NCBI GenBank assembly: GCA_016930485.1
Contig: JAFGGP010000011.1
Location: forward strand, 51,196 to 115,195
DNA from: Candidatus Omnitrophota bacterium
GTDB taxonomy: Bacteria > Omnitrophota > Gorgyraeia > JAFGGP01
DNA length: 64,000 nucleotides
Direction of reading: 5' to 3'
Part shown: in pieces, positions 12,893-39,868 of the stretch
How positions within the stretch are numbered: the stretch's first letter is position 1
How the letters are laid out: the number at the start of each line of letters is the position of its first letter
Position numbers and translations under genes: made by a program
The notes under the pieces: model-generated
The model's database searches: none
What the model was told of the DNA's origin: nothing
Seen by the model: the letters and a program-made list of their open reading frames with translations, nothing else

Positions 12893-12922
12893 CAGATTGC
12901 ATCGAACCAAAAGGAGGTAGAG

Positions 12923-15787: not shown

Positions 15788-15978
15788 TGCGTTCGGCAAT
15801 CGATCCGACGTTTTTACCCCGTTAGACAAGGAGAACGCCGTTTTTCAAAACGAGATGAATAAAGTAGTGAATTAATGGGGGCACAAAAGAGAGCCCTGCC
15901 TTTAGGCCGGGTTCTACTGGGGTTTGCACATCACGATGCGTGAGAGGATTTCATAGTACACCCCCTGAGAGAGGTGTC

Positions 15979-16737: not shown

Positions 16738-16954
16738 CACTAACCGGTCTAGCCGCTGTTGACCGGAGAGGGAAAAGGGAAGACGGGTGGCCGCCCGCGG
16801 GACCTCGACCATCGGGAATATCTCAGAGATACTATTATATTATGCTCAGGATGGAATTCGGGACTGTTTCGCACATCCCGTTTTTTAAGAGATACGAACA
16901 TTGCAATGTTTCTGATTCGTTATACTTCCAATGAGTGCATACAAGGAGGAAGAG

Positions 16955-19130: not shown

Positions 19131-20016
19131 TCCTTTTGTCAAAAAACTGTGCCTAGGGACGGCTCAACTGGGCATGGATTACGGAATTGCCAATAAGACC
19201 GGAAAAGTTCCACGTGATCAGGCATTAAATATAGTGCAGTATGCACACGAGGCAGGCATAGATACTTTGGATACGGCATATGTGTATGGAGACAGTGAAG
19301 AGATTATCGGTCATTTTTTATCAGGGGCAAAAAGGGCGTTCAAGGTTGTTTCTAAATTGCCGCCCCTGGACGACAAAAGCACCTTAGAAGACATAGAAGA
19401 CGCCGTTAAGACTTCTCGAGACAGATTAAAAATTCAGGTGCTGTATGGGTATTTGATCCATAGGCCTCGCGATTTCTTGCAACATAAAGGGTTATGGAAT
19501 GCATTAGAGACTCTGAGAGAAAAAGGTATTATGAAAAAAATAGGTTTTTCAATCTGTACGACTGAAGAACTTGAAATGATTTTTAAAAACAACATAGCGA
19601 TAGATATTCTTCAACTTCCGTACAGCATCTTTGATCGTCGATTTGAGAAGTATTTTTCAGAATTGAAGGAGCGTAATATTGAAATTCATGCGAGATCCGC
19701 GTTTCTTCAAGGGTTAGTTTTTTTAACGCCCGGTGCCTTGCCTTCCAATCTTTCGAAGGCAAAAGATCCTATTGAGAAGTTACACAAGGCATCCAGAGCC
19801 CTTCATTTACCAATACATGCAGTGTGTATAAATTTTGTTTTGTTGCAGTCTTATATCGATAAAGTAGTAATAGGTGTTGATCACTTGGAGCATTTAAAGA
19901 AAAACGTAGAGGCCCTGAAGGCTATACACAAGGTTAAGAAAGCATATGGTAAATTAATGCCATTAGAAATAGACGACGAACAAATCCTCCTTCCGTATAA
20001 CTGGAATATAAAATGA
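19123..20016 (+). CDS. Aldo/keto reductase family oxidoreductase
   Basis: CLGTAQLGMDYG...GIDTLDTAYVYGDSEEIIG core of the AKR superfamily. Lies in the low-GC segment. Confidence 0.7.
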   Translation: MTNPFVKKLCLGTAQLGMDYGIANKTGKVPRDQALNIVQYAHEAGIDTLDTAYVYGDSEEIIGHFLSGAKRAFKVVSKLPPLDDKSTLEDIEDAVKTSRDRLKIQVLYGYLIHRPRDFLQHKGLWNALETLREKGIMKKIGFSICTTEELEMIFKNNIAIDILQLPYSIFDRRFEKYFSELKERNIEIHARSAFLQGLVFLTPGALPSNLSKAKDPIEKLHKASRALHLPIHAVCINFVLLQSYIDKVVIGVDHLEHLKKNVEALKAIHKVKKAYGKLMPLEIDDEQILLPYNWNIK

Positions 20017-22067: not shown

Positions 22068-22628
22068 ATGAACTTCTTGTCTGATGTAAAGAACCAGGAA
22101 AGCACCGCGCATATCAAGGGCGAAAGAATATACCTGCGCGAAATCAACGTTTCTGACGTGAATGAACGTTATCTCGGCTGGATGAATGATTCGGAGGTCA
22201 CGCGGCATTTGCTGTGTGATGCTGAAAAATGGACGTTAGGAAAACTTAAAAAGTATGTAAAAAAGATGAAAAAGGATCCCAACTCTATATTTTTTGGGAT
22301 ATTTCTTAATGCGAATGAAACACATATAGGGAATTTAAAAATCGGTTCGATAGACTACAGGAACAACTTTGCGGATATAGGCCTACTTATTGGGGAAAGA
22401 ACAATGTGGGGCCAAGGATATGCTTCCGAGGCGATAAGATTAGCGGTCGATTTTTCCTTTAATACACTAAATCTTCATAAGTTGACTGCTAGTGTGCTTT
22501 CAATCAATATAGGTTCTGTAAGGGTTTTTCAAAAGTGCGGCTTCTCTATCGAGGGCAAAAGAGAAAAACAGTATTTTTATGATGGGGATTATCAGGATAG
22601 TATTTTATTCGGAATTATCAAAAAATGA
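22068..22628 (+). CDS. GNAT N-acetyltransferase (candidate PseH)
   Basis: 186 aa. Acetyl-CoA binding motif QGYASEAIRLAVDFSF and a RimL/PseH-like size. Positioned between the cytidylyltransferase fusion and pseG. Confidence 0.55.
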   Translation: MNFLSDVKNQESTAHIKGERIYLREINVSDVNERYLGWMNDSEVTRHLLCDAEKWTLGKLKKYVKKMKKDPNSIFFGIFLNANETHIGNLKIGSIDYRNNFADIGLLIGERTMWGQGYASEAIRLAVDFSFNTLNLHKLTASVLSINIGSVRVFQKCGFSIEGKREKQYFYDGDYQDSILFGIIKK

Positions 22629-23671
22629 AAATTGCCATACTGACTGAAGGCGGCAAAAATATCGGTTTTGGTCATATCACGCGCTGTGTGGCCCTCCTAG
22701 AGGGGTTGAAAAAGGCCGCCGGCCGGAGAGTCGCGGGCATGTTCGTGATTAATAATGACAGGAGGGCCGTGCGCTTCCTCGAAAGTCAGGGGGTGAGGCT
22801 GACGGCATTCGACTGGATTGAAAAAAGAAAAAAGACGGCCGGCATCCTGAAAGGGGCGGACCTCGTTATCATAGATTCTTATTTTGCCCCCCCGTCATTC
22901 TATTCGTTTCTTTCGCATAAGACAAAAGACACACACCCCTTTGTGGTGGCAATCGATGATTATAAACGCATTGAGTACGACGCTGATCTGGTTATCAATC
23001 CCTCGATATATGGCGATGCCCTCTCGTATGCGCCGGGCAGGGAACACAGAGCCGGTCGCCGCCCTGAATATTTACTGGGAAGGAGTTATATTATCGTACG
23101 CAGGGAGTTCTGGAATGTCCCGAGAAAAAAAATCAATAAAAAGATCCGGAACGTGCTGGTTTCTTTCGGTGGGAAGGACTACGATCCGTTTACCGAGGCT
23201 GTTTTTACATTTTTGGAGACGGAGTTTCCTCATCTTGCCTATGACGTTGTAGCCCCGTCCCGGCCGGCCGGTCTTTCCCGGTCTCGATTCAGGTTTTATT
23301 CCAATGTCTCCGCCGCGAAGATGCGTTCTCTCATGTTGAAGGCGGACCTGTGTATTTCTGCCGGCGGGCAGACCCTGCACGAGCTGGCGCGGTGCGGCGT
23401 TCCGGCCGCGTCGATTTGCTTTGCCGATAATCAGGTGAAGAATCTTAAGGGGTGGGAGAAGATCGGTTTTGCAAAGTATGTTGGCTGGTATGACGACCGA
23501 AATGTTTTTGCCAGATTAGGGAGGGCAGTCTGCGCGCTCTCGCCTTATAAGGAGAGGCTGCTCCGGAGCAGGATAGGAAGACGGATCGCAGCCAAAGGGG
23601 TAGAGAGGATAAGCAGGGTTTTACTGACCAAGACAGCACTCAAACAAAAGGAGACGGCACATGAGTCGTGA
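22625..23671 (+). CDS. pseG: UDP-2,4-diacetamido-2,4,6-trideoxy-beta-L-altropyranose hydrolase, PseG (GT28-like fold)
   Basis: MKIAILTEGGKNIGFGHITRCVALLEGL N-terminus is the PseG hallmark. C-terminal half (ISAGGQTLHELARCGVPAAS) is MurG/GT28-like. Confidence 0.7.
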   Translation: MKIAILTEGGKNIGFGHITRCVALLEGLKKAAGRRVAGMFVINNDRRAVRFLESQGVRLTAFDWIEKRKKTAGILKGADLVIIDSYFAPPSFYSFLSHKTKDTHPFVVAIDDYKRIEYDADLVINPSIYGDALSYAPGREHRAGRRPEYLLGRSYIIVRREFWNVPRKKINKKIRNVLVSFGGKDYDPFTEAVFTFLETEFPHLAYDVVAPSRPAGLSRSRFRFYSNVSAAKMRSLMLKADLCISAGGQTLHELARCGVPAASICFADNQVKNLKGWEKIGFAKYVGWYDDRNVFARLGRAVCALSPYKERLLRSRIGRRIAAKGVERISRVLLTKTALKQKETAHES

Positions 23672-24704
23672 TGGGCATGTTACTTTCAACAAGTGCTTTA
23701 TCATTGCCGAGGCAGGCAGCAATCACAATGGTTCGCTCGACCAGGCAAAACGGCTGGTAGACGTTGCAAAGGATGCGGGTGCCGATGCCGTGAAGTTTCA
23801 GCTCTTTCGCGCCAAGACCCTTTACCCCAATAAACACATAAAAGTCAAGTATTTGAAGGACATGGGGATTCGCGAGGGGTTATTCGAGATTATCAGGAAA
23901 TTCGAAATGCCCTATACCTGGGTGAAGGAACTGTATAGTTACACAAAAAAGAACGATATTATGTTCATGACCACCCCTTTTGATGCCAAGGCGGTGGAGG
24001 TTCTCAATCCTTACGTGGATATATTTAAAATTGCTTCGTACGAATCGTTGTTTTTGGACCTGATCTGTGCGGTCAAACAAACCAAAAAACCTCTTTTTAT
24101 ATCTACGGGCGGATGCACCGAGGAAGAGGTTGATTTGCTGATGAAGGGGGCCCTGTACGATTATCTTGATAAGACGACACTCCTGCACTGTATCGCGAAG
24201 TATCCGGCTCCGCTTGATCAGCTGCAGCTGCAGGTGATACCGCACTTCTCCAGAAAGTATGGTGTAACCGTCGGATATTCCGACCATTCGGAGGACCCGA
24301 TCATTGCGCCGGTGTGCGCGGTTGCGCTGGGCGCAAAGGTAATCGAGAAACACTTTACGCTGAGTAAGCAATTGCCCGGCCCGGACCACGCCTTTGCGGT
24401 CGAACCGGATGAATTACAGGCGATGGTGAAGGCCGTGCGCATGACAGAGAAGACGGTTGCGGGAAGCGGTAAAAGAACCCTGCAGCCCTGCGAGAAAGAA
24501 CTCTATTACTATAAACGCTGCCTTTACAGCAGGAGAGATTTATCGAAAGGACACAGGATCAGAAAGAGCGATGTGACGGTACTGAGAAATGTAGGGCTTA
24601 AGTGCGATTATTTTAATCCTATAGAGATCGACGACCTTATCGGCAGGACATTAAAAGGCGATAAAAGGGCCAATGATATTATAACAAAGGAAGATGTGAC
24701 ATGA
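23661..24704 (+). CDS. pseI: Pseudaminic acid synthase PseI (NeuB family, C-terminal SAF domain)
   Basis: FIIAEAGSNHNGSLDQAKRLVDVAKDAGADAVKFQ NeuB TIM-barrel motif and a C-terminal SAF/antifreeze-like domain. Confidence 0.8.
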   Translation: MSRDGHVTFNKCFIIAEAGSNHNGSLDQAKRLVDVAKDAGADAVKFQLFRAKTLYPNKHIKVKYLKDMGIREGLFEIIRKFEMPYTWVKELYSYTKKNDIMFMTTPFDAKAVEVLNPYVDIFKIASYESLFLDLICAVKQTKKPLFISTGGCTEEEVDLLMKGALYDYLDKTTLLHCIAKYPAPLDQLQLQVIPHFSRKYGVTVGYSDHSEDPIIAPVCAVALGAKVIEKHFTLSKQLPGPDHAFAVEPDELQAMVKAVRMTEKTVAGSGKRTLQPCEKELYYYKRCLYSRRDLSKGHRIRKSDVTVLRNVGLKCDYFNPIEIDDLIGRTLKGDKRANDIITKEDVT

Positions 24705-25564
24705 GCACCGAATGCACAGGAAAACTCATCTTAGAAAGAGCCGACAGAAGGCTTATAGACTGCAAAAAGTGCGGGTATATGCATATATTTCCTATGTACA
24801 CGGAAGAGGAATTGGAACATTTTTATGAGAATGTGTACTCCGAGAGTACGCCGAGTTACATCTGGTATGAAAAATTTCACAATATCCAGCGGTGGAAGCC
24901 GCAGGGTACGGTTCTTGATATCGGATGCTGGGAAGGCGCCCAGCTTGAGATTTTTAAGGAACACGGCTGGAAGTGTACCGGTATAGAACTAAATAAAAAA
25001 GCAGCGGCCACGGCAACTACAAGGGGGCTGGAGGTTCACCAGCTTTCTATTCAAGAATTTTTTAAGAAGTTTCGCGGGGCCAGAAGATGGGACGTTATTA
25101 ATGTTGCCTATATTTTGGAACACATTCCAAAACCGGCTGATTTTCTGAAAAAAATAGGCGCCTTTTTGAAAAAGGGCGGTTTTATCATCGTAGAGGTCCC
25201 TAACGAATTCAGTCCTTTCCAGATAGCCTATCTGAAGGAACACAGCATGTCCCCATATTGGATAAAGTTACCCGACCACGTTAACTACTTTAATAAAAGA
25301 GGCCTCGAGAACCTCATGAAGTCGACAGGCTGGAAAAAGATTCACGGCCACACCTCCTTTCCGATGGAGATGTTTCTCTTGATGGGGGATAACTATCTGA
25401 AGGACAACAAACTCGGAAGGCGCAGCTTTCGCAAAGTTGTCGAGATGGAGAGGATCCTGAGGCTTTACAAGACGGGACTGGTCTCGCGGATGTATTCTGC
25501 GCTCTATCACTGCGGGATAGGCAGAAGCCTTGTCATCTACGCGCAAAAGAAAAAAATGAGATGA
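24701..25564 (+). CDS. Class-I SAM-dependent methyltransferase with an N-terminal C4 zinc-ribbon
   Basis: N-terminal ...CKKCGYMH plus an upstream Cys. SAM-binding motif I (VLDIGCWEGAQL) and motif II (WDVINVAYILEHI). Confidence 0.65.
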   Translation: MSTECTGKLILERADRRLIDCKKCGYMHIFPMYTEEELEHFYENVYSESTPSYIWYEKFHNIQRWKPQGTVLDIGCWEGAQLEIFKEHGWKCTGIELNKKAAATATTRGLEVHQLSIQEFFKKFRGARRWDVINVAYILEHIPKPADFLKKIGAFLKKGGFIIVEVPNEFSPFQIAYLKEHSMSPYWIKLPDHVNYFNKRGLENLMKSTGWKKIHGHTSFPMEMFLLMGDNYLKDNKLGRRSFRKVVEMERILRLYKTGLVSRMYSALYHCGIGRSLVIYAQKKKMR

Positions 25565-26316
25565 GAATAGCCGTATTTGCCGATGTACACGGCAACATGT
25601 ATGCCTTTGAGAAGATTCTGGAGGCCCTGAAAAAAGAGAGGGCCGATCTTCATATCTTCTGCGGCGATATCTGCGGGTACTATTACCAGCAGGACGAGGT
25701 CATTCAGGCGCTTCGCCAGATGCGTAATCTGGTAAGTGTCGTAGGGAATCACGATGAGATATTTCTCAGGATGCTGGAGGATACACGTCTTGAGGAAGAG
25801 TATACAAAGCAGTACGGCAGGTCATGCTCACTCTTTAAAGAAAGCGCCGCGTTAGAAAGTGTAACATTTTTAAAGGAGTTACCGAAAAAGTATATCATTG
25901 AAGAATATGCCGTAGCCGTTTTTCACGGCAGCCCCTGGGATTACTGTAATGAGTATGTGTATCCCGATGGCGCTCTAGACAGGTTTCGTGAGCTGCCTTA
26001 TCGGTTTGTTCTGCTTGGCCACACGCATTATCCGATGGACAGAATTGCCGGCGGTGTAAGGATTATTAACCCCGGCTCATGCGGCCAGCCGAGGGATATG
26101 CATATACCCAGTTACGCGGTCCTGGATATTGACAGCGGAGAAGTTATATCCAGGCGCGTTCCGTATAATACCGAGTATTTGAAAAATGACGTCAGAAGAT
26201 ACAAAGAAGACAATCTCTATTTAGAGGAGATTTTGACAAGAGGGGAAGGGTGTTATGAGCAGGCGAACTGTACTAGTCACCGGAATCGGCGGGGATATCG
26301 GCCAGAGCGTACTTAA
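25561..26316 (+). CDS. Calcineurin-like metallophosphoesterase (YfcE/MJ0936-like)
   Basis: MRIAVFADVHGN, GDICG, GNHDE and GHTHYP metal-ligand motifs. Confidence 0.6.
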   Translation: MRIAVFADVHGNMYAFEKILEALKKERADLHIFCGDICGYYYQQDEVIQALRQMRNLVSVVGNHDEIFLRMLEDTRLEEEYTKQYGRSCSLFKESAALESVTFLKELPKKYIIEEYAVAVFHGSPWDYCNEYVYPDGALDRFRELPYRFVLLGHTHYPMDRIAGGVRIINPGSCGQPRDMHIPSYAVLDIDSGEVISRRVPYNTEYLKNDVRRYKEDNLYLEEILTRGEGCYEQANCTSHRNRRGYRPERT

Positions 26317-27241
26317 GTGTCTCAGAGAGATTCCCTATGATTTCCTCCTGGCAGGCTGTGATATCGATGCCTTTGCGGGAGGTAGGACGCTGGTCGACGC
26401 CTTTTACCATGCCCCGAAGGCCTCCGAAGCGGAAGGATATCTCGCGTTTATCAAGACTATACTGGCAAAGGAAGAGGTAAAGTATATATTTCCCGTGACC
26501 GAGATCGAGATAGATTTTTTCGATAAGCACAGGGCGTATTTTGAAAAGGACGTTACCGTTTTTATAAACACAGGCGATATCAATGAGATTTTTTTCGACA
26601 AGTATGAGACGGCGAAGTTCCTCGGCAAACACAACATTGCCTATCCGGCAACGTATTTGCTCGGGGATTACAATGATGAGTTAAGCCTACCCGTTATTGT
26701 GAAATCACGCAGGGGCTGTGGCGGCAGAGGAATGCTGATAGTGTGCGACCGTGACGAGCTTATGTTTCTAAAGAGCAAGATGAAAGATGGCATCGTACAG
26801 GAATTGGTCGGGGCCGAGGACGATGAGTATACGGTGAGCATCTTTTCCGGGGGAGGAAAAACGTATTCTATCGCCTTTCGGAGGACCCTTGGCTATGACG
26901 GACTCAGCAAGGTTGCCCGGCTGACGACAGATAACAGGATAACAGCGCTCGTTGACAGTATCGTGGAGGCGACGTCGCTCGAAGGGGTCCTGAACGTTCA
27001 GTGCAGAAAAAGGAATGCTGAGTACGTGCCCTTCGAAATCAATCCCCGGCTCTCAAGCACCGTCTACACCCGCCACTATTTTGGTTTTCAGGATGTGAAG
27101 TGGTGGATGGATACTGCCGAAGGAAAAGAAGTTGTCTATGTGCCGAAGTTCAAAGATGGCGTCGCGGTGAGGACTATCAGTGAGGTCTTTTTTGATCTTG
27201 AGTCCGCAGACAGCCCGGACAATATACGCACATTGCGATAA
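26255..27241 (+). CDS. ATP-grasp family ligase
   Basis: Pre-ATP-grasp Rossmann N-domain, then VIVKSRRGCGGRGMLIV and E..Y/N.. ATP-grasp motifs. About 330 aa, like PylC/RimK-type amide ligases. Confidence 0.55.
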   Translation: MSRRTVLVTGIGGDIGQSVLKCLREIPYDFLLAGCDIDAFAGGRTLVDAFYHAPKASEAEGYLAFIKTILAKEEVKYIFPVTEIEIDFFDKHRAYFEKDVTVFINTGDINEIFFDKYETAKFLGKHNIAYPATYLLGDYNDELSLPVIVKSRRGCGGRGMLIVCDRDELMFLKSKMKDGIVQELVGAEDDEYTVSIFSGGGKTYSIAFRRTLGYDGLSKVARLTTDNRITALVDSIVEATSLEGVLNVQCRKRNAEYVPFEINPRLSSTVYTRHYFGFQDVKWWMDTAEGKEVVYVPKFKDGVAVRTISEVFFDLESADSPDNIRTLR

Positions 27242-27250
27242 AAGGAACAA

Positions 27251-27955
27251 ATGAGCCGCCCGGATAAGAAAAGATATATTATTGCCGCCAGCAAATCCTG
27301 GAATATAGAGGCAGCCAGATCCTTTATTGCCGATAGCCCCGACTTACAGATAAAGCTTATAACAGACAAAAAGGCGCTTACCTACGGGGAGATAAAGAAC
27401 TTCAATCCCCGCTACGTCTTTTTCCTGCATTGGTCGTGGCTGATACCTCAGGCGATTCACCGGAACTACGACTGCGTCGTTTTTCATATGACTGATTTAC
27501 CTTTTGGCAGGGGCGGTAGCCCTCTCCAGAATTTGATAGAGAGAGGGATATATAAAACGAAGATTGCGGCCATAAAGGCGGTCCGGGAGCTGGACGCGGG
27601 AGATATCCTGCTTAAGAAGAGCCTGACTCTGGAGGGGTCTGCTGACGAGATATTCAGGCGCGCGACAAAAATTATCTTTACATCCATGATTCCCCGAATC
27701 ATCAAAGACGAGCCGGTTCCTGTTCCTCAGAAGGGGAAGGTGGTTCGTTTTAAAAGGCGTCTTCCCGAGCAGGGCACTATAGCCCGGTTGAGCAGTCTAA
27801 CAAAGGTCTATGATTACATAAGGATGCTGGACGCAGAGGGGTATCCGCCCGCCTTTATGGAGGTGTCCGGATTAAGGTTGGAATTTTTTGATGCACAGAA
27901 GAAAAAGGACTATATTACGGCAAAGGTCAGGCTGAGGATAAAAGATGAAACATAA
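27251..27955 (+). CDS. Formyltransferase-family protein (Fmt/PurN fold)
   Basis: HMTDLPFGRGGSPLQ matches the H-x-S/T-x-LP-x-x-RG-x-x-P-x-Q formyltransferase catalytic loop. Confidence 0.6.
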   Translation: MSRPDKKRYIIAASKSWNIEAARSFIADSPDLQIKLITDKKALTYGEIKNFNPRYVFFLHWSWLIPQAIHRNYDCVVFHMTDLPFGRGGSPLQNLIERGIYKTKIAAIKAVRELDAGDILLKKSLTLEGSADEIFRRATKIIFTSMIPRIIKDEPVPVPQKGKVVRFKRRLPEQGTIARLSSLTKVYDYIRMLDAEGYPPAFMEVSGLRLEFFDAQKKKDYITAKVRLRIKDET

Positions 27956-28625
27956 CATTTTGATTGTAGCCGCTCATCCGGACGATGAGATTCTCGGGTG
28001 CGGGGGTACGGTTGCGCGCTTGATTAAAGAAGGGCATGCAGCGTATACGTTACTGTTGGGCGAGGGGGTAACCTCGCGAGATGAGGAGCGCGACCCGAAA
28101 AAACGGGGAAAAGAGATTAACAGCCTGAGAAACCAGGCCCAGCAGGCTAACGCTGCCCTCGGGGTAAAAGAAGTTTTTATACATAGCTTTCCGGATAACA
28201 GATTTGATACGGTGCCGCTTTTGGATATTGTCAAGGTTATAGAAAAGACAAAAGAGAAAGTAAAACCTGCCCTTGTCTTTACTCATTATGCGAATGACCT
28301 CAATATCGATCACCGCATTACCTGTGCCGCAGTTCTCACCGCTACCAGACCCGTGTTGGATGAGACAGTAAAAGAAATCTACTCGTTTGAGGTACCTTCT
28401 TCTACAGAGTGGAACTATCCCTTGAGTTTTTCCCCGAATGTATATTTTGATATCTCACAGACGATAGATGTGAAGTTGCAGGCAATAAAGCAGTACGTTT
28501 CAGAGATCAAAGAGCCACCCCACCCCAGGTCTCAGGAAGGCGTAGAGCTCAATGCAAGGATGTGGGGGATGAAGGTGGGACTTGGGTATGCCGAGGCCTT
28601 TACATGCGTGAGGCGCCTGGCGTAG
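27945..28625 (+). CDS. PIG-L/LmbE-family N-deacetylase
   Basis: ILIVAAHPDDEILGCGGTVARL zinc-binding signature of LmbE/PIG-L deacetylases. Confidence 0.75.
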   Translation: MKHNILIVAAHPDDEILGCGGTVARLIKEGHAAYTLLLGEGVTSRDEERDPKKRGKEINSLRNQAQQANAALGVKEVFIHSFPDNRFDTVPLLDIVKVIEKTKEKVKPALVFTHYANDLNIDHRITCAAVLTATRPVLDETVKEIYSFEVPSSTEWNYPLSFSPNVYFDISQTIDVKLQAIKQYVSEIKEPPHPRSQEGVELNARMWGMKVGLGYAEAFTCVRRLA

Positions 28626-28657: not shown

Positions 28658-29758
28658 ATGTCTTTAGAGTGCATCGTTTGCAGTTCGACACAGTGCACGT
28701 TATTGATTAAACAAGGCGGGTACGACATTTTTAGGTGCCGCCGCTGCCGCCTGATTTTCGCCCATCCCCTCCCGGATGCCGGCCAGCTGGGCGCGTTTTA
28801 TCAGAATTTTGGCCATAATCGCGAAGAGGCAGACTGTCCTGATGAACAGAGACTCATTGTTGAAGGGGCGATGAGAGAAAAAATTCGTCTTGCCAGGGAA
28901 ATCGCCGTCTCGCCGATAAAGACCTTTCTCGATATAGGTGCGGGCTGCGGCTATTATCTGCACGGGGCGAAAAAGGCGGGGTTGGACGTGACAGGCGTGG
29001 AACTGGACGCTAGTGCCGTTATGTTTGCCCGGGAGCATCTGGGGCTCGAAATAAAAGAGGGAGGTTTTCTGGAGGCAGCTCTCGAGGACAATTATTTTGA
29101 CTTTGTCCACCTTCGTAACTCTATCGAGCATTTTACGGACCCAGGGGAGTGCCTTTTGAAGATAAACCATATCATGAAAAAGGGCGGGGTATTAATACTG
29201 GAGACACCGAATTCCCAAAGCCCCGAGCACCTGGTGCGCCGGTTATTTCTGGATGCCGTAAAAACCCTGAGACGGAATATGCCCGGCCGGGCCGCGTGGT
29301 GGTATTGGAAGACGGCACTTATGCGGCCCTGGGCATATGTTGATCCCCCGCGACATCTCTATGGCTTCAATAAGCACAACATCGATCTTCTTCTGGCGAC
29401 TTATGGATTCAAAAGTTACGACATTATGGCCAAGCCGCTGGGCGACCCTGTTTATCATCCTGTTTCCCCCGGCGCCCAGAGGCAACGCGATGCTGAGATG
29501 CGCGCTGCCGAGGCGCGTCTTTTTTCAAGCTCCAGGCTGCGGTATTGTCTCTATGTCTTTGGATGGAAACCTGTTGCTTTTATCTTACAAAAGATAATCG
29601 CACGGGCCGGAATGGGGAATAATCTGGTTGTGTATGCTGTAAAAGAGAAGACGGTTGCACGCAAGTGTGCGGCGCCGACCGAAGAGCTTATTACGGGACG
29701 CCGCCAGGATATGTCTACATCAGAAACAAAGAGCGCACTCATACAATGTACAGCCTAA
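28658..29758 (+). CDS. Class-I SAM-dependent methyltransferase with an N-terminal C4 zinc-ribbon (paralog of 24701..25564)
   Basis: CIVCSS...CRRCRL zinc-ribbon. SAM motif FLDIGAGCGYYL and motif II FDFVHLRNSIEHF. Same architecture as the gene at 24701. Confidence 0.65.
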   Translation: MSLECIVCSSTQCTLLIKQGGYDIFRCRRCRLIFAHPLPDAGQLGAFYQNFGHNREEADCPDEQRLIVEGAMREKIRLAREIAVSPIKTFLDIGAGCGYYLHGAKKAGLDVTGVELDASAVMFAREHLGLEIKEGGFLEAALEDNYFDFVHLRNSIEHFTDPGECLLKINHIMKKGGVLILETPNSQSPEHLVRRLFLDAVKTLRRNMPGRAAWWYWKTALMRPWAYVDPPRHLYGFNKHNIDLLLATYGFKSYDIMAKPLGDPVYHPVSPGAQRQRDAEMRAAEARLFSSSRLRYCLYVFGWKPVAFILQKIIARAGMGNNLVVYAVKEKTVARKCAAPTEELITGRRQDMSTSETKSALIQCTA

Positions 29759-31155
29759 TTATACCCACATCGGCGCCTCAGAAAAGACATTCTCGGCGAT
29801 ATAGTATGCTGTGGAAGAAAATGCGGTCTTTTTTGCGCTATACGATCAAACCCTATGTGTATATCCCCATTACCTTTACCAAGCGGGTTCTTTTGGGCAA
29901 AGACCCCTATTGGCGGCAGTACTTCTGGAGTCGGTGGGGGTATGTGCCGAGAACGGTGGCGCGGGAACTTCAAAAGGCGCAACCCTTTTTTATAGCAGCG
30001 GATAGTTTCGGAGAGGTCAACGAGCTTTTTTCTTTCTGTAAGAGGCTTAAAGAAAGTTTTCCAGAGACACCGATTCTGGTCTCGACGAATACCGAGAACG
30101 GCTTTTCTCTGGCAAAAAGGATAGAGGCTGTTGATTTTGTTATCGATGCGCCGTGGGATCTTCCCGGTCCGACAAGGAGAGTACTCAGGGCCTGTTCTCC
30201 CAGGGCCTTGATTGTGATAGAACAGATCAGATTTCCGGTGCTTGTGCGTGAGGCAAAGGAGCTGAACATACCGACACTTCTCTGCAGTGGTTTTTTATCG
30301 GAAGACTGGGAAAATGTTCTTTCAGCCTTCAGGGCTGTAACACTAAAGGCCTATACATATTTGGATGCTATTGGCGCTAAAGGCATATCTGAGGTCGATA
30401 CCTTTTTAAGGATAGGAGTTGATTCAAAAAAGATATCGGTAACCGGGGATTTAAAATGCGATCCCGGTCATATCAGGATTTCGTCGGACGAGCGTGATGA
30501 TCTGCTGAAATCGGTAGCCTGTCATGATAGCCGTCCCGTATTTCTGGCAGCAAGCATACACAAAGAGGAGGCCTCCGCGATTATAGAGGGGTACCGGTTG
30601 GCAAAAAGGCGCGTACCGTTGCTTCGGTTATTGTGCGTCCCGCGCTATCCGGGGGAATTGGATTTTTTTGAAAGACTACTAGCAAAAAACGGCCTGGCTT
30701 TTGTGAAAAAATCCCTCATCACGAAAGACACTCTATCCAACGACCACTCGATTATATTAGTGGATACTATGGGTGAGCTGGCAAAATTATACGCCGTTGC
30801 CTCCCTTGCCTTTATCGGCGGCAGTTTTATGAAGATAGAAGGTCCCGGAAGAGGGGGGCACAATATAATGGAACCGGTTATCCAGAGCTGCCCCTTTTTA
30901 TTCGGACCTTATTTGTATCATCGCAGCGACATTCTTCGTCGTCTTGCGTCTGCCTGCCCGCATATAGTGGTGAGGACAGAAGAGGATCTTGCCTCAGGTA
31001 TTCAGAAGTTGCTGGAGGATCAGCATCACCTTACGTTACTCAGGGGCGTTATGAGTGAGATTGTGAACGAGAATGCATCCACGGTAGAAGTAAACATTGA
31101 TTTCGTAAAGAGATATACGGCTGTGTCAGGGGCACCCGTTACAGCTGTAACCTAG
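29746..31155 (+). CDS. WaaA/KdtA-family (GT30) ulosonic-acid transferase homolog
   Basis: Two conserved blocks align with E. coli WaaA: VLVSTNTENGFSLAKR and ILVDTMGELAKLYAVASLAFIGGSFMKIEGPGRGGHNIMEP...FGPYLYHRSDI. The start is ambiguous (29746 or 29806). Confidence 0.7.
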   Translation: MYSLIIPTSAPQKRHSRRYSMLWKKMRSFLRYTIKPYVYIPITFTKRVLLGKDPYWRQYFWSRWGYVPRTVARELQKAQPFFIAADSFGEVNELFSFCKRLKESFPETPILVSTNTENGFSLAKRIEAVDFVIDAPWDLPGPTRRVLRACSPRALIVIEQIRFPVLVREAKELNIPTLLCSGFLSEDWENVLSAFRAVTLKAYTYLDAIGAKGISEVDTFLRIGVDSKKISVTGDLKCDPGHIRISSDERDDLLKSVACHDSRPVFLAASIHKEEASAIIEGYRLAKRRVPLLRLLCVPRYPGELDFFERLLAKNGLAFVKKSLITKDTLSNDHSIILVDTMGELAKLYAVASLAFIGGSFMKIEGPGRGGHNIMEPVIQSCPFLFGPYLYHRSDILRRLASACPHIVVRTEEDLASGIQKLLEDQHHLTLLRGVMSEIVNENASTVEVNIDFVKRYTAVSGAPVTAVT

Positions 31156-31171
31156 ATAAAGGGGAGACGCG

Positions 31172-32761
31172 TTGGCAATCACCGATCTTAAGGAAAACGT
31201 CGAGGAAAAGGACCAGGCCGCGAAGAGAGCTGACGGACAATACAGTACCAGCCAGGTGCAAAGGCGCATAGTAAAAGATACCAGTCTCTTTTCCTTTGCC
31301 AGCATCTTTTCGCTTGTCATGTCTTTTTTCAGGGGAATGGTCATTCCTAATCTGCTTGGGCCGGTATATTACGGGATGCTGAACGGCCTGTCCGTCATAT
31401 CAAACCATACTCAGTATTCTCATATGGGCATTTCCAACGGAATGTCCTTTTGGATTCCCCATTATCGCGGCAAAGGTGATGAGCGCGCGATTGAAGAAGT
31501 GCGGAACGCAACCTTTACCGTTGCGGTGATTACCGGGGCGTTTGCCTCTGCCCTTATTTTTGTCATTTTGGGTATTGTGTGGAAACGCCTGGATATACCG
31601 GTAAGGGCGGGGTTGGGGGTATTCGCCTGTTTGGTTTTTATACAAAACCTGCGTATTTTTATAAACCTTGCCTTGCGGAGCGATCACCGCTTCAAACTGA
31701 TCAGTCTGATTACCATGCTGGAGTCCTTTTTTGCCACCGGTCTGGTCATCTCGCTTGCCTGGTTTTTTAAAATCTACGGTGTCTTTGCGGCAATGCTTCT
31801 CTCAAGCGGCTATTTTTTGCTTTTTTCCTTCGTTAAGGCAAAGTACCTGTTACGGTGGTACATGAAGAAAAAGGTTTTGCTGGATTTGCTATCGGTAGGG
31901 TTTCCTTTATTTATAATAGGATTATGCAATGTATTTTTTCTGGGCATCGACAGAATTCTTATTATCAAGGTGCTGGGTTTAAAGAATCTGGGGTTTTACG
32001 CCCTTGGCCTTACCCTGGCGACCTATCTCAAGACTATTCCGATAGCCTTTTCAAAGATAATAGCCCCGAGGGTGTATGAGGAGTCAAGCAGAGAGGAAGG
32101 AGACACGGTGCAGTACCTGGTAGACCCTGTCATATGTCTTAGCCTGCTTGCCGTTACCATGATCGGCTTTTTATATTTGATAGTGCCATGGTTTTTTTCC
32201 GAGATTTTTCCGGCCTATATTTCAGGCATACGCAGCGGACAGATTCTTTTGATCTCCGCCTATTTCCCTATCGTTGCCCTTATACCCAGTCAGATTATTA
32301 TTGGGCAGAGGAGGATGGCCCAGGTATTGGTGTTTCAGTTACTCGCTATCGGGGTGGCCTTTTTCTTCGGCCTTCTGGCCTTCAAGAGGGGGATGGGCAT
32401 CGAAGGTATGGCAGCCGCCATGCTCTTAGCCCATGCCCTATATGCTGTTCTTGCGTTATATGGCGCGTCACGCCTGACTATAAAAAACCGATGTAACATG
32501 CTCACTTTTTTTGCCTCTTTATCAGGTATTTTCTGCTACGGGATTCTGACGGCATATGGATTAGAGGGTTGTGGCTGGTTTTTCGGCTGCCGTGAAGGGT
32601 GCGCCCTTGTCCTCAAGACCCTTGTTTTTGTCGCAGGTCTTATTCCTGTGTATTATGTCGTGTCGCGTCGGTCATGGATGTTTAAAGAAATTGTTACATT
32701 AAGCGGGCTCGGCCTTTCCCGCATTAAAAATCGTATGAATGGAACAACCCTAGAGGTGTAA
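31172..32761 (+). CDS. Wzx-like polysaccharide flippase (MOP superfamily, Polysacc_synt type)
   Basis: TTG start 5 nt after an AAAGGGGAG RBS. About 12-14 predicted TM helices across 529 aa with no soluble domain. Confidence 0.55.
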   Translation: MAITDLKENVEEKDQAAKRADGQYSTSQVQRRIVKDTSLFSFASIFSLVMSFFRGMVIPNLLGPVYYGMLNGLSVISNHTQYSHMGISNGMSFWIPHYRGKGDERAIEEVRNATFTVAVITGAFASALIFVILGIVWKRLDIPVRAGLGVFACLVFIQNLRIFINLALRSDHRFKLISLITMLESFFATGLVISLAWFFKIYGVFAAMLLSSGYFLLFSFVKAKYLLRWYMKKKVLLDLLSVGFPLFIIGLCNVFFLGIDRILIIKVLGLKNLGFYALGLTLATYLKTIPIAFSKIIAPRVYEESSREEGDTVQYLVDPVICLSLLAVTMIGFLYLIVPWFFSEIFPAYISGIRSGQILLISAYFPIVALIPSQIIIGQRRMAQVLVFQLLAIGVAFFFGLLAFKRGMGIEGMAAAMLLAHALYAVLALYGASRLTIKNRCNMLTFFASLSGIFCYGILTAYGLEGCGWFFGCREGCALVLKTLVFVAGLIPVYYVVSRRSWMFKEIVTLSGLGLSRIKNRMNGTTLEV

Positions 32762-32768
32762 TGGCGCA

Positions 32769-34664
32769 ATGGAACACCCTGCCCCTCATTCTTATAAGAG
32801 CAATAAGTCAGTCATGATGGTTTTTGCCGCGCCGGTCGAAGAGAGACGTTACGAACAGCTGGTTAAGAAGATGACGTCCCGCTTTGAAAGGGTATCCGTT
32901 ATTTTCTTAAACGGTGAACCCCGGCAGATTCTATTCTCGAACGGATGTCCGAGGCATCTTCAAACAAAAGACATTCCTTACGAGACTGCCTTCCGGAAGG
33001 CGAAGTCCTTGTCAAAGGAGATCATCGAAAACATAACCGCGTTCCCGGAGAAGATGTTTTATTTTGGTTCGGTTTCGCTGGAGCCGGCATTTGATAAAAG
33101 CCTTCTCAAACGGCTTATGCAGTATGTGGGGGGATTTCTCAGGCTTGAAGATGCATTAAAAGACGAGCACCCCGACAGTATCTTTATTTACACAGAAGAT
33201 CTTTTCGAACGTGCACTGTTCTCTTCGCTAAAGAACGTTTTTCCGCAGGGTGCCTTTCACTTTGTTTCCGGTTTTTCATTGCGCCGGGCCGCATTTTTTT
33301 CTTTGTACATCAAAGGCTGGATGAGATTGTTTCGAGACCTTGCCTATGAACCGAGACCGCCTTTTAGACATGCAGGCCGTGCTGACGAGGCGAATGCATC
33401 ACCGTCCGCTGTTTTCCTGGACGATCACCCGCTTTTATTGGAAAGAATGGCGCCCCTTTTTAAGCGTTTTGTCGAGCAGAACTGGAAGGTAACCGTGGTC
33501 GGCTTTGGCAAAACGCGTAAAAGCGGCTGGGAACAGGCGGGTCTTGCGAGCCGCGTTTTTGGGAATCACCCGATAGGATTCCGGCTTCTTTTGGAGCGCT
33601 GGCGCTATATACTACGTTTCAGGAAGGTATATAGAAAGAGGGGCTTTACTCCTCACAGTGAGAAATGGAATGAGATGAGGCGGTATATTGCCTGTGAGGA
33701 AACCTATCGTATTATCTATACCTATCAAAAGATCAACCAGGCGTTGAGCGACCTTCAGCCAGAGGCCATTCTTTTTACTAATCGGCAGGTATTCGGTACG
33801 TTAATCGGTCTTGTGGCCAGGGCATCCGGGATTCCCGCGGTATGGATCCAGGAGGCCGGCCACTTCCTCCAGACGGCGATGTCAGTTAACAATGAGCATC
33901 TTATAGCGGATTACTTTCTTGTGTGGGGAGACGTCAGTCGGGAGACGCTGGTAGAGGGCGGTATCGACAGGGATAAGATCTTTATAACAGGGGCCCTTAT
34001 GTTTGAGAACCTCTTAAAAGAAGCGCGGGATATCACTGTCGGCCAGCGGTGTATCTTTGAGGGCGACAAGGAGCGGAAGGAACCCGTATGCCGCGTACTG
34101 CTCATCTCCGTTTTTCCCAGCGACGGGGCTGTGACCAATCCCCAGCCGTCAAGCAGACTGAAAGAGGATATTTTGAAGGCGGTAGGCAATGTTATGAAGG
34201 ATATCCCATCGGCTGTGCTGGTGATCAAGCCGCACCCCTTTGATGAAAACGGGTCGTCTTTTGATGAAAAGATCATCGGAGCTATACTTCCCCGTTCACA
34301 GTATGAGATAGCATCCTCTGCGAGCGATCTTGTGACACTGGTTAAGGAGTCAGACGCCATGTTTCTTATGCACGGGTCGACTGCTGGTCTGTATGCGGTG
34401 CTCTTCGGCAAGCCCATTGTGATGATGTCAGAAAAAAGCAACCTGGCATTTAATTTATTCGTAGAAGAAAAGATGTCCGTTTACGCCGCTACACCCGCGG
34501 ACATCAAAGACGCGCTTCATTCGGCCCTTTTTGACAAGGAGACACAGGACCGTTTGTTTAATAAAAGAAACGAATTCCTGGATCGGTACCTCAGCGTGAA
34601 TAATGAGGGTTTGCCTTCGGAAAATATCAGTACTTTTTTGAAGGAGCGCGTGTTAAGGACATGA
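32769..34664 (+). CDS. KpsS/KpsC/LpsZ-like (Capsule_synth family) putative glycosyltransferase with a long N-terminal extension
   Basis: C-terminal block VLVIKPHPFDE...DAMFLMHGSTAGLYAVLFGKPIVMM resembles the HP...S-T-x-G...G-K-P motif set of KpsS/LpsZ capsule transferases. The N-terminal ~350 aa are unassigned. Weak call. Confidence 0.4.
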   Translation: MEHPAPHSYKSNKSVMMVFAAPVEERRYEQLVKKMTSRFERVSVIFLNGEPRQILFSNGCPRHLQTKDIPYETAFRKAKSLSKEIIENITAFPEKMFYFGSVSLEPAFDKSLLKRLMQYVGGFLRLEDALKDEHPDSIFIYTEDLFERALFSSLKNVFPQGAFHFVSGFSLRRAAFFSLYIKGWMRLFRDLAYEPRPPFRHAGRADEANASPSAVFLDDHPLLLERMAPLFKRFVEQNWKVTVVGFGKTRKSGWEQAGLASRVFGNHPIGFRLLLERWRYILRFRKVYRKRGFTPHSEKWNEMRRYIACEETYRIIYTYQKINQALSDLQPEAILFTNRQVFGTLIGLVARASGIPAVWIQEAGHFLQTAMSVNNEHLIADYFLVWGDVSRETLVEGGIDRDKIFITGALMFENLLKEARDITVGQRCIFEGDKERKEPVCRVLLISVFPSDGAVTNPQPSSRLKEDILKAVGNVMKDIPSAVLVIKPHPFDENGSSFDEKIIGAILPRSQYEIASSASDLVTLVKESDAMFLMHGSTAGLYAVLFGKPIVMMSEKSNLAFNLFVEEKMSVYAATPADIKDALHSALFDKETQDRLFNKRNEFLDRYLSVNNEGLPSENISTFLKERVLRT

Positions 34665-34668
34665 CTTC

Positions 34669-35727
34669 ATGAGACTATACTTATCGACGTTAGCGAAAAA
34701 AATCGGGGTTTCCTGCTCCTATCGATTGAAGAAGGCGCGGCACAACGCCTTTTTGGCAGAGGCAACCCTCCCGCGCGTTGTTCACATCGAAAACACAAAC
34801 GCCTGTAACGCACGCTGTGTCATGTGTCCCCGCGAGAAAATGAAACGGCCTGTAGGATATATGGACCTGGCTCTTTTTAAGCGACTTATCGATGAATGCA
34901 GCCAGTGGGACTCTTTGGAGGAGGTGCATTTGCATGGGTTCGGTGAGCCCCTTATCGATCCCTATCTGACGGAGCGGGTGCGGTATGCCAAGGAAAAGGG
35001 CATACGAGATACCTATGTCGTTACTAATGCCTCTCTCCTGACCTCTGAGGTTTCAGAAAGGTTGATATGTGCCGGTCTGGACAGGATCAAAGTGAGTTTC
35101 TACGGGGCCACCAAGGAGGCCTATGAGGTTATCCATAGAGGGCTGACCTTTGAGGTAGTAAAGGACAATGTGCGGGATCTTTTTGATGTCCGGAGACGTC
35201 TTGATCGCAGCAATCCGAGGATATGCCTTCAATTTTTGCCCCAGAGCGCCAATAGTCATGAAGAAGGGATTTTTAAGGACACCTGGCAGGATATCATAGA
35301 CCTCTCCAGGGGCGATCGTCTTTCACAGGCACAGCTGCACAACTATGCGACGGGAAGGGTGTATAACCCGGTCAACAAGAAGGCCAGACGAACGAGTTGC
35401 GGGCTCCCGTTCGAAACGATGCACATTTTGTGGAACGGCGATGTAGCGCCCTGTTGTTACGATTATAACGGTTGTCTTGTATTGGGAAATGTAGTAGCTG
35501 CGGGCCTCAGGGAGGTCTGGAATAATAAGGCATTCCAGCACCTGAGAAAGGTTCATAGGAACAGGACTTTTTCGCGGGTTCCCTTGTGCGACGGCTGCGA
35601 TCAGCTCAAGGTGCCACGCTCGATAGAAAAAAGGCTGCTCTCTTATTTTGCTCTTACCATACCTCCCGAAAGGGATGTGGCAGTGGCAGGAGGGGCGGAA
35701 AAAAGAGAAGCCGCATTAAAGAGTTAA
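34669..35727 (+). CDS. Radical SAM enzyme with a C-terminal SPASM/twitch-type auxiliary Fe-S domain
   Basis: CNARCVMC (CxxxCxxC) radical-SAM cluster motif and a GFGEPL SAM-binding motif. Cys-rich C-terminus (CGLPFE...CCYDYNGC...CDGCDQ) typical of SPASM domains. Paralog of the C-terminal domain of 58515..60686. Confidence 0.8.
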   Translation: MRLYLSTLAKKIGVSCSYRLKKARHNAFLAEATLPRVVHIENTNACNARCVMCPREKMKRPVGYMDLALFKRLIDECSQWDSLEEVHLHGFGEPLIDPYLTERVRYAKEKGIRDTYVVTNASLLTSEVSERLICAGLDRIKVSFYGATKEAYEVIHRGLTFEVVKDNVRDLFDVRRRLDRSNPRICLQFLPQSANSHEEGIFKDTWQDIIDLSRGDRLSQAQLHNYATGRVYNPVNKKARRTSCGLPFETMHILWNGDVAPCCYDYNGCLVLGNVVAAGLREVWNNKAFQHLRKVHRNRTFSRVPLCDGCDQLKVPRSIEKRLLSYFALTIPPERDVAVAGGAEKREAALKS

Positions 35728-39857: not shown

Positions 39858-39868
39858 GGAAAAATAGC

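Follow-up and report, generated by a model that had tools for sequence, protein, structure and literature searches.

Few transferases are known for Pse, Leg and related acids: Maf/FlmG, which act on flagellins, KpsS1 (GT118) and the Tannerella enzymes. To our knowledge, one function alone is ascribed to GT30, the placing of Kdo onto lipid A precursors, and annotation pipelines call every GT30 member a Kdo transferase. In bacterial glycobiology, the shortage of transferases for nonulosonic acids is acknowledged as a gap (PMC5420450). Knock-outs have validated a family of Tannerella transferases for Pse/Leg derivatives, to which BFO_1060 belongs (PMC5420450), and KpsS1 (GT118) of Acinetobacter baumannii has been described (PMC12887879).

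The window analysed here is the whole stretch of 64,000 nucleotides, from a MAG of an uncultured Omnitrophota bacterium, in which a GT30-like gene, a flippase gene and a gene for a 631-aa GT-B protein follow Pse-type genes. With moderate confidence, the region of these three genes is read as the core, for transfer and flipping, of a surface-polysaccharide locus that depends on Wzx and makes tailored Pse; in this reading the GT30-like protein would not be a lipid A Kdo transferase but would take CMP-ulosonate to a non-lipid-A acceptor, and the 631-aa protein would be a second transferase. That both are CMP-ulosonate transferases is plausible.

Gene order and Pse-type genes

The GT30-like, Wzx and 631-aa genes form one tight operon on the + strand, 3' of PseB/C/H/G/I-type and tailoring genes and within a Wzi/Wza/Wzz polysaccharide locus, arranged as follows.

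11324..16737, + strand: export genes, namely Wzi (PF14052, 213 bits), a 954-aa Wza (Poly_export and SLBB repeats; PF02563 and PF10531) and a Wzz-domain protein (PF02706)
16931..24704, + strand: Pse biosynthesis block of PseB, PseC, an aldo-keto reductase, a CTP_transf_3/class III aminotransferase fusion, and PseH-like GNAT, PseG-like and PseI/NeuB-like proteins (TIGR03589, TIGR03588)
24701..28625, + strand: putative Pse tailoring genes for a methyltransferase, a metallophosphoesterase, an ATP-grasp ligase, a formyltransferase-like protein and a PIG-L deacetylase (Pfam and NCBIfam matches)
28658..29758, + strand: class I SAM methyltransferase, 366 aa, directly 5' of the GT30-like gene (PF13489, 65 bits)
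29806..31155, + strand: GT30-like GT-B glycosyltransferase, 449 aa (PF04413); the alternative start at 29746 gives 469 aa
31172..32761, + strand: Wzx-type (MOP) flippase, 529 aa (PF13440; hydrophobic segments)
32769..34664, + strand: GT-B protein, 631 aa, soluble or peripheral, of the BFO_1060/TIGR04396 superfamily (Pfam and NCBIfam matches)
34669..35727, + strand: radical SAM/SPASM enzyme (PF04055, PF13186; BtrN 70.8 bits)

The three genes named in an earlier sequence-only reading were all found where it had put them (open reading frames at 29665/29746/29806-31155, 31172-32761 and 32769-34664, all on the + strand), and an independent Logan assembly (L104) had the same gene order. Intergenic gaps were 16 nt between the GT30-like gene and Wzx, 7 nt between Wzx and the 631-aa gene, and 4 nt between the latter and the radical SAM gene. 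The start codon of the GT30-like gene is ambiguous (449 aa from 29806 in NCBI, 469 aa from 29746 in Logan); its homologues align from the shorter form. The middle gene starts with TTG, and an AGGGGAG ribosome-binding site was read from the sequence just 5' of it. It was assigned to the Wzx-type flippases because its product matched PF13440 Polysacc_synt_3 (55.3 bits) and has at least about twelve hydrophobic segments.

For the Pse block, PseB (TIGR03589, 499.6 bits, cut-off 407.75) and PseC (TIGR03588, 497.1 bits, cut-off 423.5) passed, and the PseG-like (135.6 bits), PseH-like (47.2 bits) and PseI/NeuB-like (262.5 bits) proteins scored under their respective cut-offs. About 5 kb separate the GT30-like gene from NeuB and about 7.7 kb separate it from the CMP-synthetase domain; it is not directly 3' of either.

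The GT30-like protein and its clade

PF04413 Glycos_transf_N was matched by residues 63-239 of the 469-aa form of the GT30-like protein at 97.5 bits (gathering score 23.9), and all five NCBIfam WaaA equivalog models (NF004385-NF004389) scored under their cut-offs (best 209.5 bits against 438; the others 161.8 against 590, 150.5 against 363, 146.6 against 524 and 106.7 against 617). By sequence and fold alike, the best solved structure was Aquifex WaaA 2XCI: the AF2 model (pLDDT 89) matched it at E 7.6e-20, the next match trailing by about nine orders of magnitude, and the clade profile scored 122.5 bits against it. A search with the GT30-like protein returned 15 clade members at 280-330 bits, followed after a gap by WaaA at no more than 166 bits. 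The phylogeny against bona fide WaaA that the sequence-only reading had proposed was run by Neighbor Joining; the clade that includes the window protein, its deepest branch, separated from all canonical WaaA at 50/50 bootstrap, and eight Omnitrophota WaaA clustered elsewhere, with a Planctomycetia WaaA (45/50 bootstrap). The window protein scored 480 bits with the clade HMM vs 293 bits with the WaaA HMM. These sequence comparisons place the GT30-like protein in an undescribed, small offshoot of the family of lipid A Kdo transferases. Clade members occur rarely and patchily, with 2, from different phyla, among the best 80 loci in a scan of one genome per species (185,579 species), which suggests an accessory gene.

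The roles of Aquifex WaaA residues were taken from PMC6286764. CMP-binding and catalytic residues were kept, Aquifex G30/E31, K162, R212, N273 and E276 corresponding to G69/E70, K217, R280, N353 and E356 in the window protein. WaaA-invariant residues were lost at N152, R154, E132, W134, H54, Y163, R190, R273 and N354/F355 (E. coli-like numbering), among them the Trp of ETELWP (W134; Aquifex W102, an acyl-chain contact), and the N-x-R motif of WaaA is gone. In the window protein and across the clade this Trp is replaced by F or is variable, N152 is S in 100%, R154 is F or L, and H54 is A or D. Those at the ETELWP Trp, the N-x-R motif, H54, Y163, R190 and R273 fall in the N-terminal, acceptor-side domain, so that donor and acceptor sides differ in what they share with WaaA. 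The window protein carries the clade-specific motifs DPYWRQYFWSRWG, PWD and VPRY, and is considered the most WaaA-like clade member because it is the deepest branch and retains a WaaA-like GGHN motif and the equivalent of E98.

It is highly improbable that the GT30-like gene is the sole, housekeeping WaaA, merely divergent, in a locus shared by LPS and O-antigen. The GT30 fold and the conserved CMP-binding and catalytic residues would suit such a role, as would the ArnA/ArnC/ArnT/ArnD-like domains 3' of the GT30-like gene region and the LptD said to lie upstream; a PF04453 match does exist at 4889-7045, but it is weak (42.6 bits) and about 23 kb distant. Against it stand the scores under every WaaA equivalog cut-off and the separate clade, which bear out the suspicion that this gene is unlike housekeeping WaaA, together with the separate grouping of ordinary WaaA from other Omnitrophota genomes, the rare and patchy distribution, the lost acceptor-side residues, and clade neighbours that are ulosonate synthases, Wzx/Wzy and ABC transporters rather than lipid A genes.

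Those neighbours were consistent across the clade. A CMP-ulosonate synthetase, NeuB or DAHP-synthase-like gene lay immediately 5' or no more than about 1 kb away at 13 (plus one weak) of the 17 other clade loci; among 78 canonical waaA loci used as controls, a CMP-synthetase was found in 1 and a NeuB-like gene in 2, both weak and >3 kb off. Wzx/Wzy or an ABC transporter was located 3' of the clade gene in L001, L003, L004 and L007 (Wzx in L001, L004 and L007). BtrN-like radical SAM homologues adjoin the clade GT30 in L001, L002, L004, L005, L007 and L095 (controls, 1/78), methyltransferases related to the 28658..29758 protein flank it in L001, L002, L004 and L007, and a shorter homologue of the 631-aa protein is directly upstream of it in L005. 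The non-lipid-A setting suspected for the window thus extends to the clade, whose genes sit in ulosonic-acid and polysaccharide loci. As they are nearly always beside genes for CMP-activated acidic sugars, a surface polysaccharide, and not LPS core, is probably the product. A specific partnership with Pse did not carry over: PseB/PseC were not recognisable in the other GT30-clade loci, which had NeuB or DAHP-synthase-like synthases instead, so that Pse as the donor is indicated by adjacency in this window only.

It is also conceivable, though unlikely, that the GT30-like enzyme transfers Kdo from the housekeeping CMP-Kdo pool, or a Kdo-like 7-/8-carbon sugar, into the repeat unit or onto a lipid primer, leaving transfer of the Pse derivative to the 631-aa protein alone. 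CMP-Kdo is the donor of every characterised GT30 enzyme in the literature searched, the N-terminal cytidylyltransferase domain of the window fusion scored higher with KdsB subfamily models (92.6 bits) than with PseF (27 bits), and NulO-type contexts are those of the 631-aa family. However, a kdsA-like gene was absent among the scanned window ORFs of at least 150 aa, and the CMP-synthetases adjoining clade genes were PseF-like (142-156 bits), not KdsB-like. The DAHP/KDO8P-synthase-family genes that accompany CMP-synthetases in place of NeuB at several clade loci could be taken in its favour, but they scored as DAHP synthase (369 bits) and not as KDO8P synthase (107 bits), and NeuB itself was directly upstream in about half of the informative clade loci.

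Under the preferred reading, that of CMP-ulosonate transfer to a non-lipid-A acceptor, this small paralogous clade has kept the N-terminal membrane helix, the catalytic Gly-Glu pair and a C-terminal domain that binds CMP-sugar in the WaaA manner, and the acceptor-side N-terminal domain has been remodelled. The GT30-like protein would take a CMP-activated 2-keto-3-deoxy acid from the pathway of the neighbouring genes, in this window most likely a Pse derivative, and would transfer it, inverting as in GT30, to a membrane-bound acceptor. That acceptor would most likely be an undecaprenyl-diphosphate-linked repeat unit, which Wzx would then flip.

We tentatively propose, at somewhat less than even confidence, that the clade is a new functional class in the Kdo-transferase family, comprising inverting enzymes that transfer CMP-activated nonulosonic or other 3-deoxy-ulosonic acids to lipid-linked polysaccharide precursors and not to lipid A. 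Here the donor would be tailored Pse and the linkage beta-Pse. Clade enzymes would form a functional module together with a methyltransferase and a sugar-modifying radical SAM enzyme that resembles BtrN. If true, a GT30 offshoot serving polysaccharide loci would be a new enzyme class that installs ulosonic acids, and would give glycoengineers an inverting catalyst beside the retaining KpsS1. Caution would then be called for before LPS capacity is inferred from just any PF04413 match in uncultured phyla. The repeated pairing of clade GT30 genes with sugar-type radical SAM enzymes hints at undescribed ulosonic-acid modifications.

The 631-aa GT-B protein

The second enzyme had been called KpsS-like. 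When checked by HMM, the similarity was above the PF05159 Capsule_synth cut-off but marginal (24.2 bits against 20, E 2.9e-5) and partial (profile positions 157-260 of 310 only), and Epimerase_2 scored higher (33.7 bits). A search for remote homologues gave 617, the best at 107 bits. Across 31 aligned family members, NF046086 (best E 1.5e-30) and TIGR04396 (best E 1.2e-28) were matched by 31/31, PF05159 by 25/31 (best E 2.5e-8), Epimerase_2 by 22/31 (best E 7.4e-18), Glyphos_transf by 18/31 and Glycos_transf_1 by 12/31; the family profile reached E about 3e-3 against solved KpsC. The KpsS rationale was weakened by these results, NF046086 and TIGR04396 being far closer, and KpsS/KpsC was ruled out as the best-matching family since both models and Epimerase_2 all score better. 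The tie to nonulosonic-acid transferases held by another route, as the family matches that of Tannerella BFO_1060. On NF046086 the window protein itself scored 33 bits against a cut-off of 200, and homologues scored 52-74 bits.

The AF2 model (pLDDT 77.8, pTM 0.82) has a GT-B fold; its fold matches are generic GT-B, and the same epimerases turn up for the GT30-like model. H489-P490, in the HP motif K487-P-H489-P490 of the C-terminal nucleotide-binding domain, and S537-T538 are invariant or nearly so; across the 31 sequences P490 never varies and H489 occurs in 90%. The sole D-x-D triplet is DRD at residue 400, a [DE][DE]G triplet was found nowhere in the protein, and retaining Asp/Glu catalytic residues of KpsS/KpsC type were not identifiable in it. 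Among the loci of homologues, L087 is a legionaminic-type cluster (NeuB, NeuC-like, DegT, SDR and CMP-synthetase) and L103 has two CMP-synthetases; L086, the locus of the best homologue, lacked NulO genes over the 10 kb that were visible.

It is possible, though we doubt it, that the 631-aa protein is another GT-B enzyme, such as a TagF-like transferase of polyol phosphates or a glycosyltransferase using NDP-sugars, with Pse transfer left to the GT30-like enzyme alone. The Glyphos_transf, Epimerase_2 and Glycos_transf_1 matches would agree with this, as would the best PDB matches of the family profile (GT28 diacylglycerol glucosyltransferase, 2-epimerases and TagF-like enzymes), the NulO-free surroundings in L086 and the missing D/E-D/E-G motif. 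However, the E-values of NF046086 and TIGR04396 are far better than those of any other family, the HP and S-T motifs are conserved, L087 and L103 carry CMP-synthetases with a full Leg-type set in L087, and CDP-glycerol/CDP-ribitol synthesis genes were not seen among the window ORFs scanned with profiles.

The 631-aa protein is accordingly retained as a putative second GT-B transferase; it is related to the Pse/Leg transferases of Tannerella and has HP and Ser-Thr motifs that would bind CMP. By context, it is a stronger candidate for a Pse-type donor than the GT30-like protein, and each enzyme may add a ulosonate residue of its own, or the pair may form two different linkages. The earlier suggestion that one or both transfer Pse or a derivative stands insofar as the GT30-like protein is not WaaA-like and the 631-aa family is NulO-linked, but the KpsS argument for it is weak and the GT30-like clade is not Pse-specific.

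Comparison with known systems

With WaaA/KdtA (GT30; Aquifex aeolicus 2XCI/2XCU and E. coli WaaA), the GT30-like protein shares the GT-B fold, PF04413, a homologous N-terminal helix and the equivalents of G30/E31, K162, R212, N273 and E276, and by homology it should be inverting and CMP-dependent. It differs in its identity of 21-30%, its separate clade and its lost acceptor-side residues, and the clade is found in polysaccharide/ulosonate loci, not with lipid A or core genes.

For the 631-aa protein, the Tannerella forsythia enzymes Tanf_01245/TFUB4_00887/BFO_1060 define the model (NF046086) matched by it and by all 30 aligned homologues; shared features are the fold (GT-B or TagB-like), the HP motif and adjacent genes for CMP-NulO biosynthesis. 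In contrast to them, it reaches only 33 bits (cut-off 200), is longer (631 vs about 445 aa), having ~300 additional residues in its N-terminal part, and is without the D/E-D/E-G motif. A further difference is that the Tannerella acceptor is a protein O-glycan. KpsS1 (GT118, Acinetobacter baumannii) and KpsS/KpsC (GT107, PF05159) are CMP-ulosonate transferases of capsule loci, and PF05159 is also matched by the 631-aa protein and 25/31 homologues, but for the window protein this match is partial (157-260 of 310) and marginal (24 bits), and other families are far better.

The 34669-35727 protein aligns with the carbohydrate-modifying radical SAM enzymes BtrN/DesII/BlsE over the radical SAM core (residues 37-158), to which the alignment is limited. 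These are its only solved relatives (BtrN 70.8 bits, E 9e-19), which indicates a sugar rather than a peptide substrate.

Layout of the locus

All three genes read from the interval 29746-34664 by the sequence-only reading were present, in the same order in an independent Logan assembly. The interval sequence was 100% identical to the JW844_01150 and JW844_01160 proteins of a Candidatus Omnitrophica MAG, encoded on a contig of 122 kb. As the genes are co-directional and lie 4-47 nt from their neighbors, they were taken to form one operon. From ~7 kb to 64 kb of the window every gene is on the + strand, making up one very large glycan locus.

Genes of the interval, with its radical SAM neighbor, and order of the glycan locus
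29665 (GTG, opening of the ORF)-31155, +, GT30-like protein (NCBI 449 aa from ATG 29806; Logan assembly 469 aa from ATG 29746)
31172-32761, +, Wzx membrane protein, 529 aa (TTG start, ribosome-binding site AGGGGAG in front)
32769-34664, +, 631-aa protein (ORF)
34669-35727, +, radical SAM/SPASM protein (closest solved relatives BtrN, DesII, BlsE)
Order 1, +, sugar dehydrogenases, Wzi, 954-aa Wza, Wzz-domain protein
Order 2, +, PseB, PseC (both pass NCBIfam cut-offs)
Order 3, +, aldo-keto reductase, cytidylyltransferase/aminotransferase fusion at the usual pseF place
Order 4, +, PseH-like, PseG-like, PseI/NeuB-like (all under NCBIfam cut-offs)
Order 5, +, tailoring genes (methyltransferase, metallophosphoesterase, ATP-grasp, formyltransferase-like, PIG-L deacetylase), then a second methyltransferase
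Order 6, +, GT30-like, Wzx and 631-aa genes
Order 7, +, radical SAM/SPASM, GT4, UDP-GlcNAc 2-epimerase, Arn-like, four PMT_2, more GT4s, GT4-radical SAM fusion

The fusion between pseC and pseH, just after the aldo-keto reductase gene (20013-22067, +, 684 aa), joins CTP_transf_3 to a class III aminotransferase (glutamate-1-semialdehyde-aminomutase-like, 451 bits); its CTP_transf_3 domain scored 92.6 bits as KdsB-like and only 27 bits as PseF. Four PMT_2/ArnT-like GT-C paralogues share the locus (40669-42231, 44569-46026, 57148-58467 and 62020-63774, all +), and Arn-type domains lie beside them (ArnA-like, 38068-39857; ArnC-like GT2, 39842-40672; ArnD-like deacetylase, 42915-43934). Neither Wzy nor an initiating phosphoglycosyl transferase was recognized among window ORFs of at least 150 aa. 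The "LptD upstream" of the sequence-only reading does have a match, a weak one (PF04453, 42.6 bits) lying 23 kb upstream: this 718-aa product (4889-7045, +), whose gene immediately precedes those for sugar-nucleotide dehydrogenase and Wzi/Wza, could be either a diverged LptD or a different large beta-barrel of the outer membrane.

Family and residues of the GT30-like protein

The GT30-like protein scored 97.5 bits on PF04413 and at most 209.5 bits on the WaaA equivalog models, which require 363-617 bits. Searching 5.8 billion proteins returned 15 relatives (35-40% identity, 280-330 bits), followed by a gap and then by ordinary WaaA, none above 166 bits. The phylogeny against canonical WaaA, proposed in the sequence-only reading, was computed by neighbor joining with 31 canonical sequences, and it separated the window protein and its relatives as one clade (50/50 bootstrap) in which the window protein branches deepest. 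Eight Omnitrophota WaaA from other MAGs clustered with a Planctomycetia WaaA, away from this clade. With the window protein left out of its alignment, the clade HMM gave this protein 480 bits vs. 293 bits for a WaaA HMM. The AF2 model (pLDDT 89) had Aquifex WaaA as top fold match, ahead by nine orders of magnitude. Fold and family are thus those of GT30; judged from sequence, the protein is no ordinary WaaA and is placed in an undescribed accessory clade. The WaaA of L069, an Omnitrophota locus from Zodletone (MBN1913945), was considered as a second waaA of the same MAG and rejected: because its accession lies ~120,000 from MBN1793553 and contig GC is 44% vs. ~49% for the window, it was attributed to a different MAG.

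Residue roles known for Aquifex WaaA (PMC6286764) were transferred through a HMMER alignment and a 49-sequence alignment. The donor side is kept, with Aquifex G30/E31, K162, R212, N273 and E276 corresponding to window G69/E70, K217, R280, N353 and E356. On the N-terminal, acceptor side, residues invariant in canonical WaaA are replaced throughout the clade, among them the Trp and second Glu of ETELWP, N-x-R, and H54, Y163, R190 and R273 in E. coli-like numbering; the ETELWP Trp is Aquifex W102, which contacts an acyl chain (PMC6286764). An N-terminal signature of the clade's own is invariant (LPITF..R....G.DPYWRQYFWSRWG, GGEV, PWD, VPRY), and the long N-terminal helix is retained in the AF2 model. 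Since GGHN and the E98 equivalent are kept, the window protein is the most WaaA-like member. A kept donor side and helix with a replaced acceptor side is the pattern expected of a membrane enzyme still using a CMP-sugar, with a different acceptor.

Neighborhoods of the clade and candidate donors

Besides the window, 17 distinct clade loci were collected, five by exact look-up, two by a species-genome scan and ten, after removal of redundancy, by a metagenome scan. The species-genome scan was dominated by canonical WaaA, as one search pattern is common to both; an N-terminal clade-specific alignment was used instead for the metagenome scan. A CTP_transf_3, NeuB or DAHP-synthase-like gene was directly upstream or within ~1 kb in 13 of the 17 (plus one weak case). 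The cytidylyltransferases were PseF-like (142-156 bits); many of the loci combine a pair of synthases with two or three cytidylyltransferases, and on longer contigs Wzx/Wzy or an ABC transporter followed the clade gene. With the same queries, 78 control loci with canonical waaA from the genome scan yielded one cytidylyltransferase, two weak NeuB-like genes (both >3 kb off) and eight DAHP/KdsA-family genes, the last with ~25% identity to the clade-locus genes. The clade is rare and patchy: scanning one genome for each of 185,579 species placed two members among the best 80 loci, one from Omnitrophota and one from Vicinamibacterales. That the window gene is the housekeeping WaaA, for which the shared fold and donor side might be read, was judged unlikely from the window and the clade loci, as ulosonate-type neighbors and a patchy distribution fit a housekeeping lipid A enzyme poorly.

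Recognizable PseB/PseC were absent from all 17 other loci, and in some a DAHP-synthase-like synthase takes the place of NeuB (in L003, 369 bits as DAHP synthase, above the NF006421 cut-off, vs. 107 bits as KDO8P synthase). For these two reasons the clade was read as CMP-ulosonate transferases with varying donors, and its donor range is probably broader than pseudaminic acid (Pse). DAHP-synthase-like genes adjoin PseF-like CMP-synthetases in L003 (3749-5805 and 8476-10001), L002 (5272-6000), L006 (8317-9935), L089 and L094, and L003 further holds shikimate-dehydrogenase-like and transaldolase genes; such loci may encode a route to a CMP-activated 7-carbon 3-deoxy-ulosonic acid. GT2 is fused to CTP_transf_3 in L001 (6834-8243), L002 (3897-5285) and L004 (4480-5859), and to NeuB in L003 (5934-7445). 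Each such fusion could act as a channelled synthetase-transferase handling a second ulosonic acid.

Homologues of the radical SAM/SPASM gene at 34669-35727 adjoin clade genes in six other loci (L001, L002, L004, L005, L007 and L095) vs. 1/78 controls, and such genes also lie beside the best 631-aa homologue. BtrN, DesII and BlsE are all sugar-modifying enzymes, and the recurrent pairing suggests an undescribed radical modification of the ulosonic acid or its carrier. An unusual fusion of GT4 (Glyco_transf_4/Glycos_transf_1, residues ~71-347) with radical SAM/SPASM (residues 446-711) at 58515-60686 (+, 723 aa) echoes the GT30/radical SAM linkage.

The central proposal of the sequence-only reading holds in outline, its KpsS reasoning having been corrected (next section): both enzymes are candidates for the transfer of ulosonic acids, not for LPS core synthesis. 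In the window the tailoring genes separate the GT30-like gene from NeuB and from the cytidylyltransferase; Pse is a candidate donor for this enzyme through adjacency in the window alone, and gene context favors the 631-aa protein over it for Pse. For the GT30-like enzyme, the sugar added may be a second Pse-type residue or one of Kdo type. The link drawn here between a GT30 member and nonulosonic-acid genes is wholly comparative; literature searches found no paper tying GT30 to nonulosonic acids, and A. baumannii KdoT is not GT30.

The 631-aa protein and the Tannerella transferases

A word-index search with the 631-aa protein alone matched only itself, and one with a 31-sequence family alignment matched six proteins. 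The homologue set was taken from an exhaustive HMMER search, which gave 617 remote relatives, mostly ~600 aa (best 107 bits, 27% identity), aligning across residues ~310-630. The AF2 model (pLDDT 77.8, pTM 0.82) has a GT-B fold plus an additional region at the N-terminus, and its Foldseek matches are generic. The top matches, UDP-GlcNAc 2-epimerases, were not taken as functional evidence, since the GT30 model hit the same epimerases at similar E-values and the window has a genuine epimerase gene elsewhere (36980-38071).

Nonulosonate-type genes were found in two of three informative homologue loci, L087 with a full legionaminic-type set and L103 with two cytidylyltransferases and HisH/HisF-like genes; the best homologue (L086) has three radical SAM genes after it instead. 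In L005 a shorter superfamily member lies directly upstream of the clade GT30, between two radical SAM genes, so the window GT30/631-aa pairing recurs elsewhere.

The KpsS-type similarity claimed for this protein is both marginal and partial (PF05159, 24.2 bits vs. a cut-off of 20, about one third of the profile covered). As a family assignment it gave way to NF046086 and TIGR04396, each matched by 31/31 aligned members (best E 1.5e-30 and 1.2e-28); Epimerase_2, Glyphos_transf and Capsule_synth were far poorer, and solved KpsC reached only E about 3e-3 against the family profile. The K-x-H-P and S-T motifs, which bind CMP phosphate in GT-B sialyltransferases and TagF-type enzymes, are retained in the 631-aa protein, and the D/E-D/E-G motif is absent from it. 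In Tannerella forsythia, Tanf_01245 and TFUB4_00887 are needed to add a Pse or legionaminic acid derivative to the O-glycan, as established by knock-out and cross-complementation, and BFO_1060 represents their family in strain 92A2 (PMC5420450). Distant relative of the Tannerella BFO_1060 family is thus a better label for the 631-aa protein than KpsS-like.
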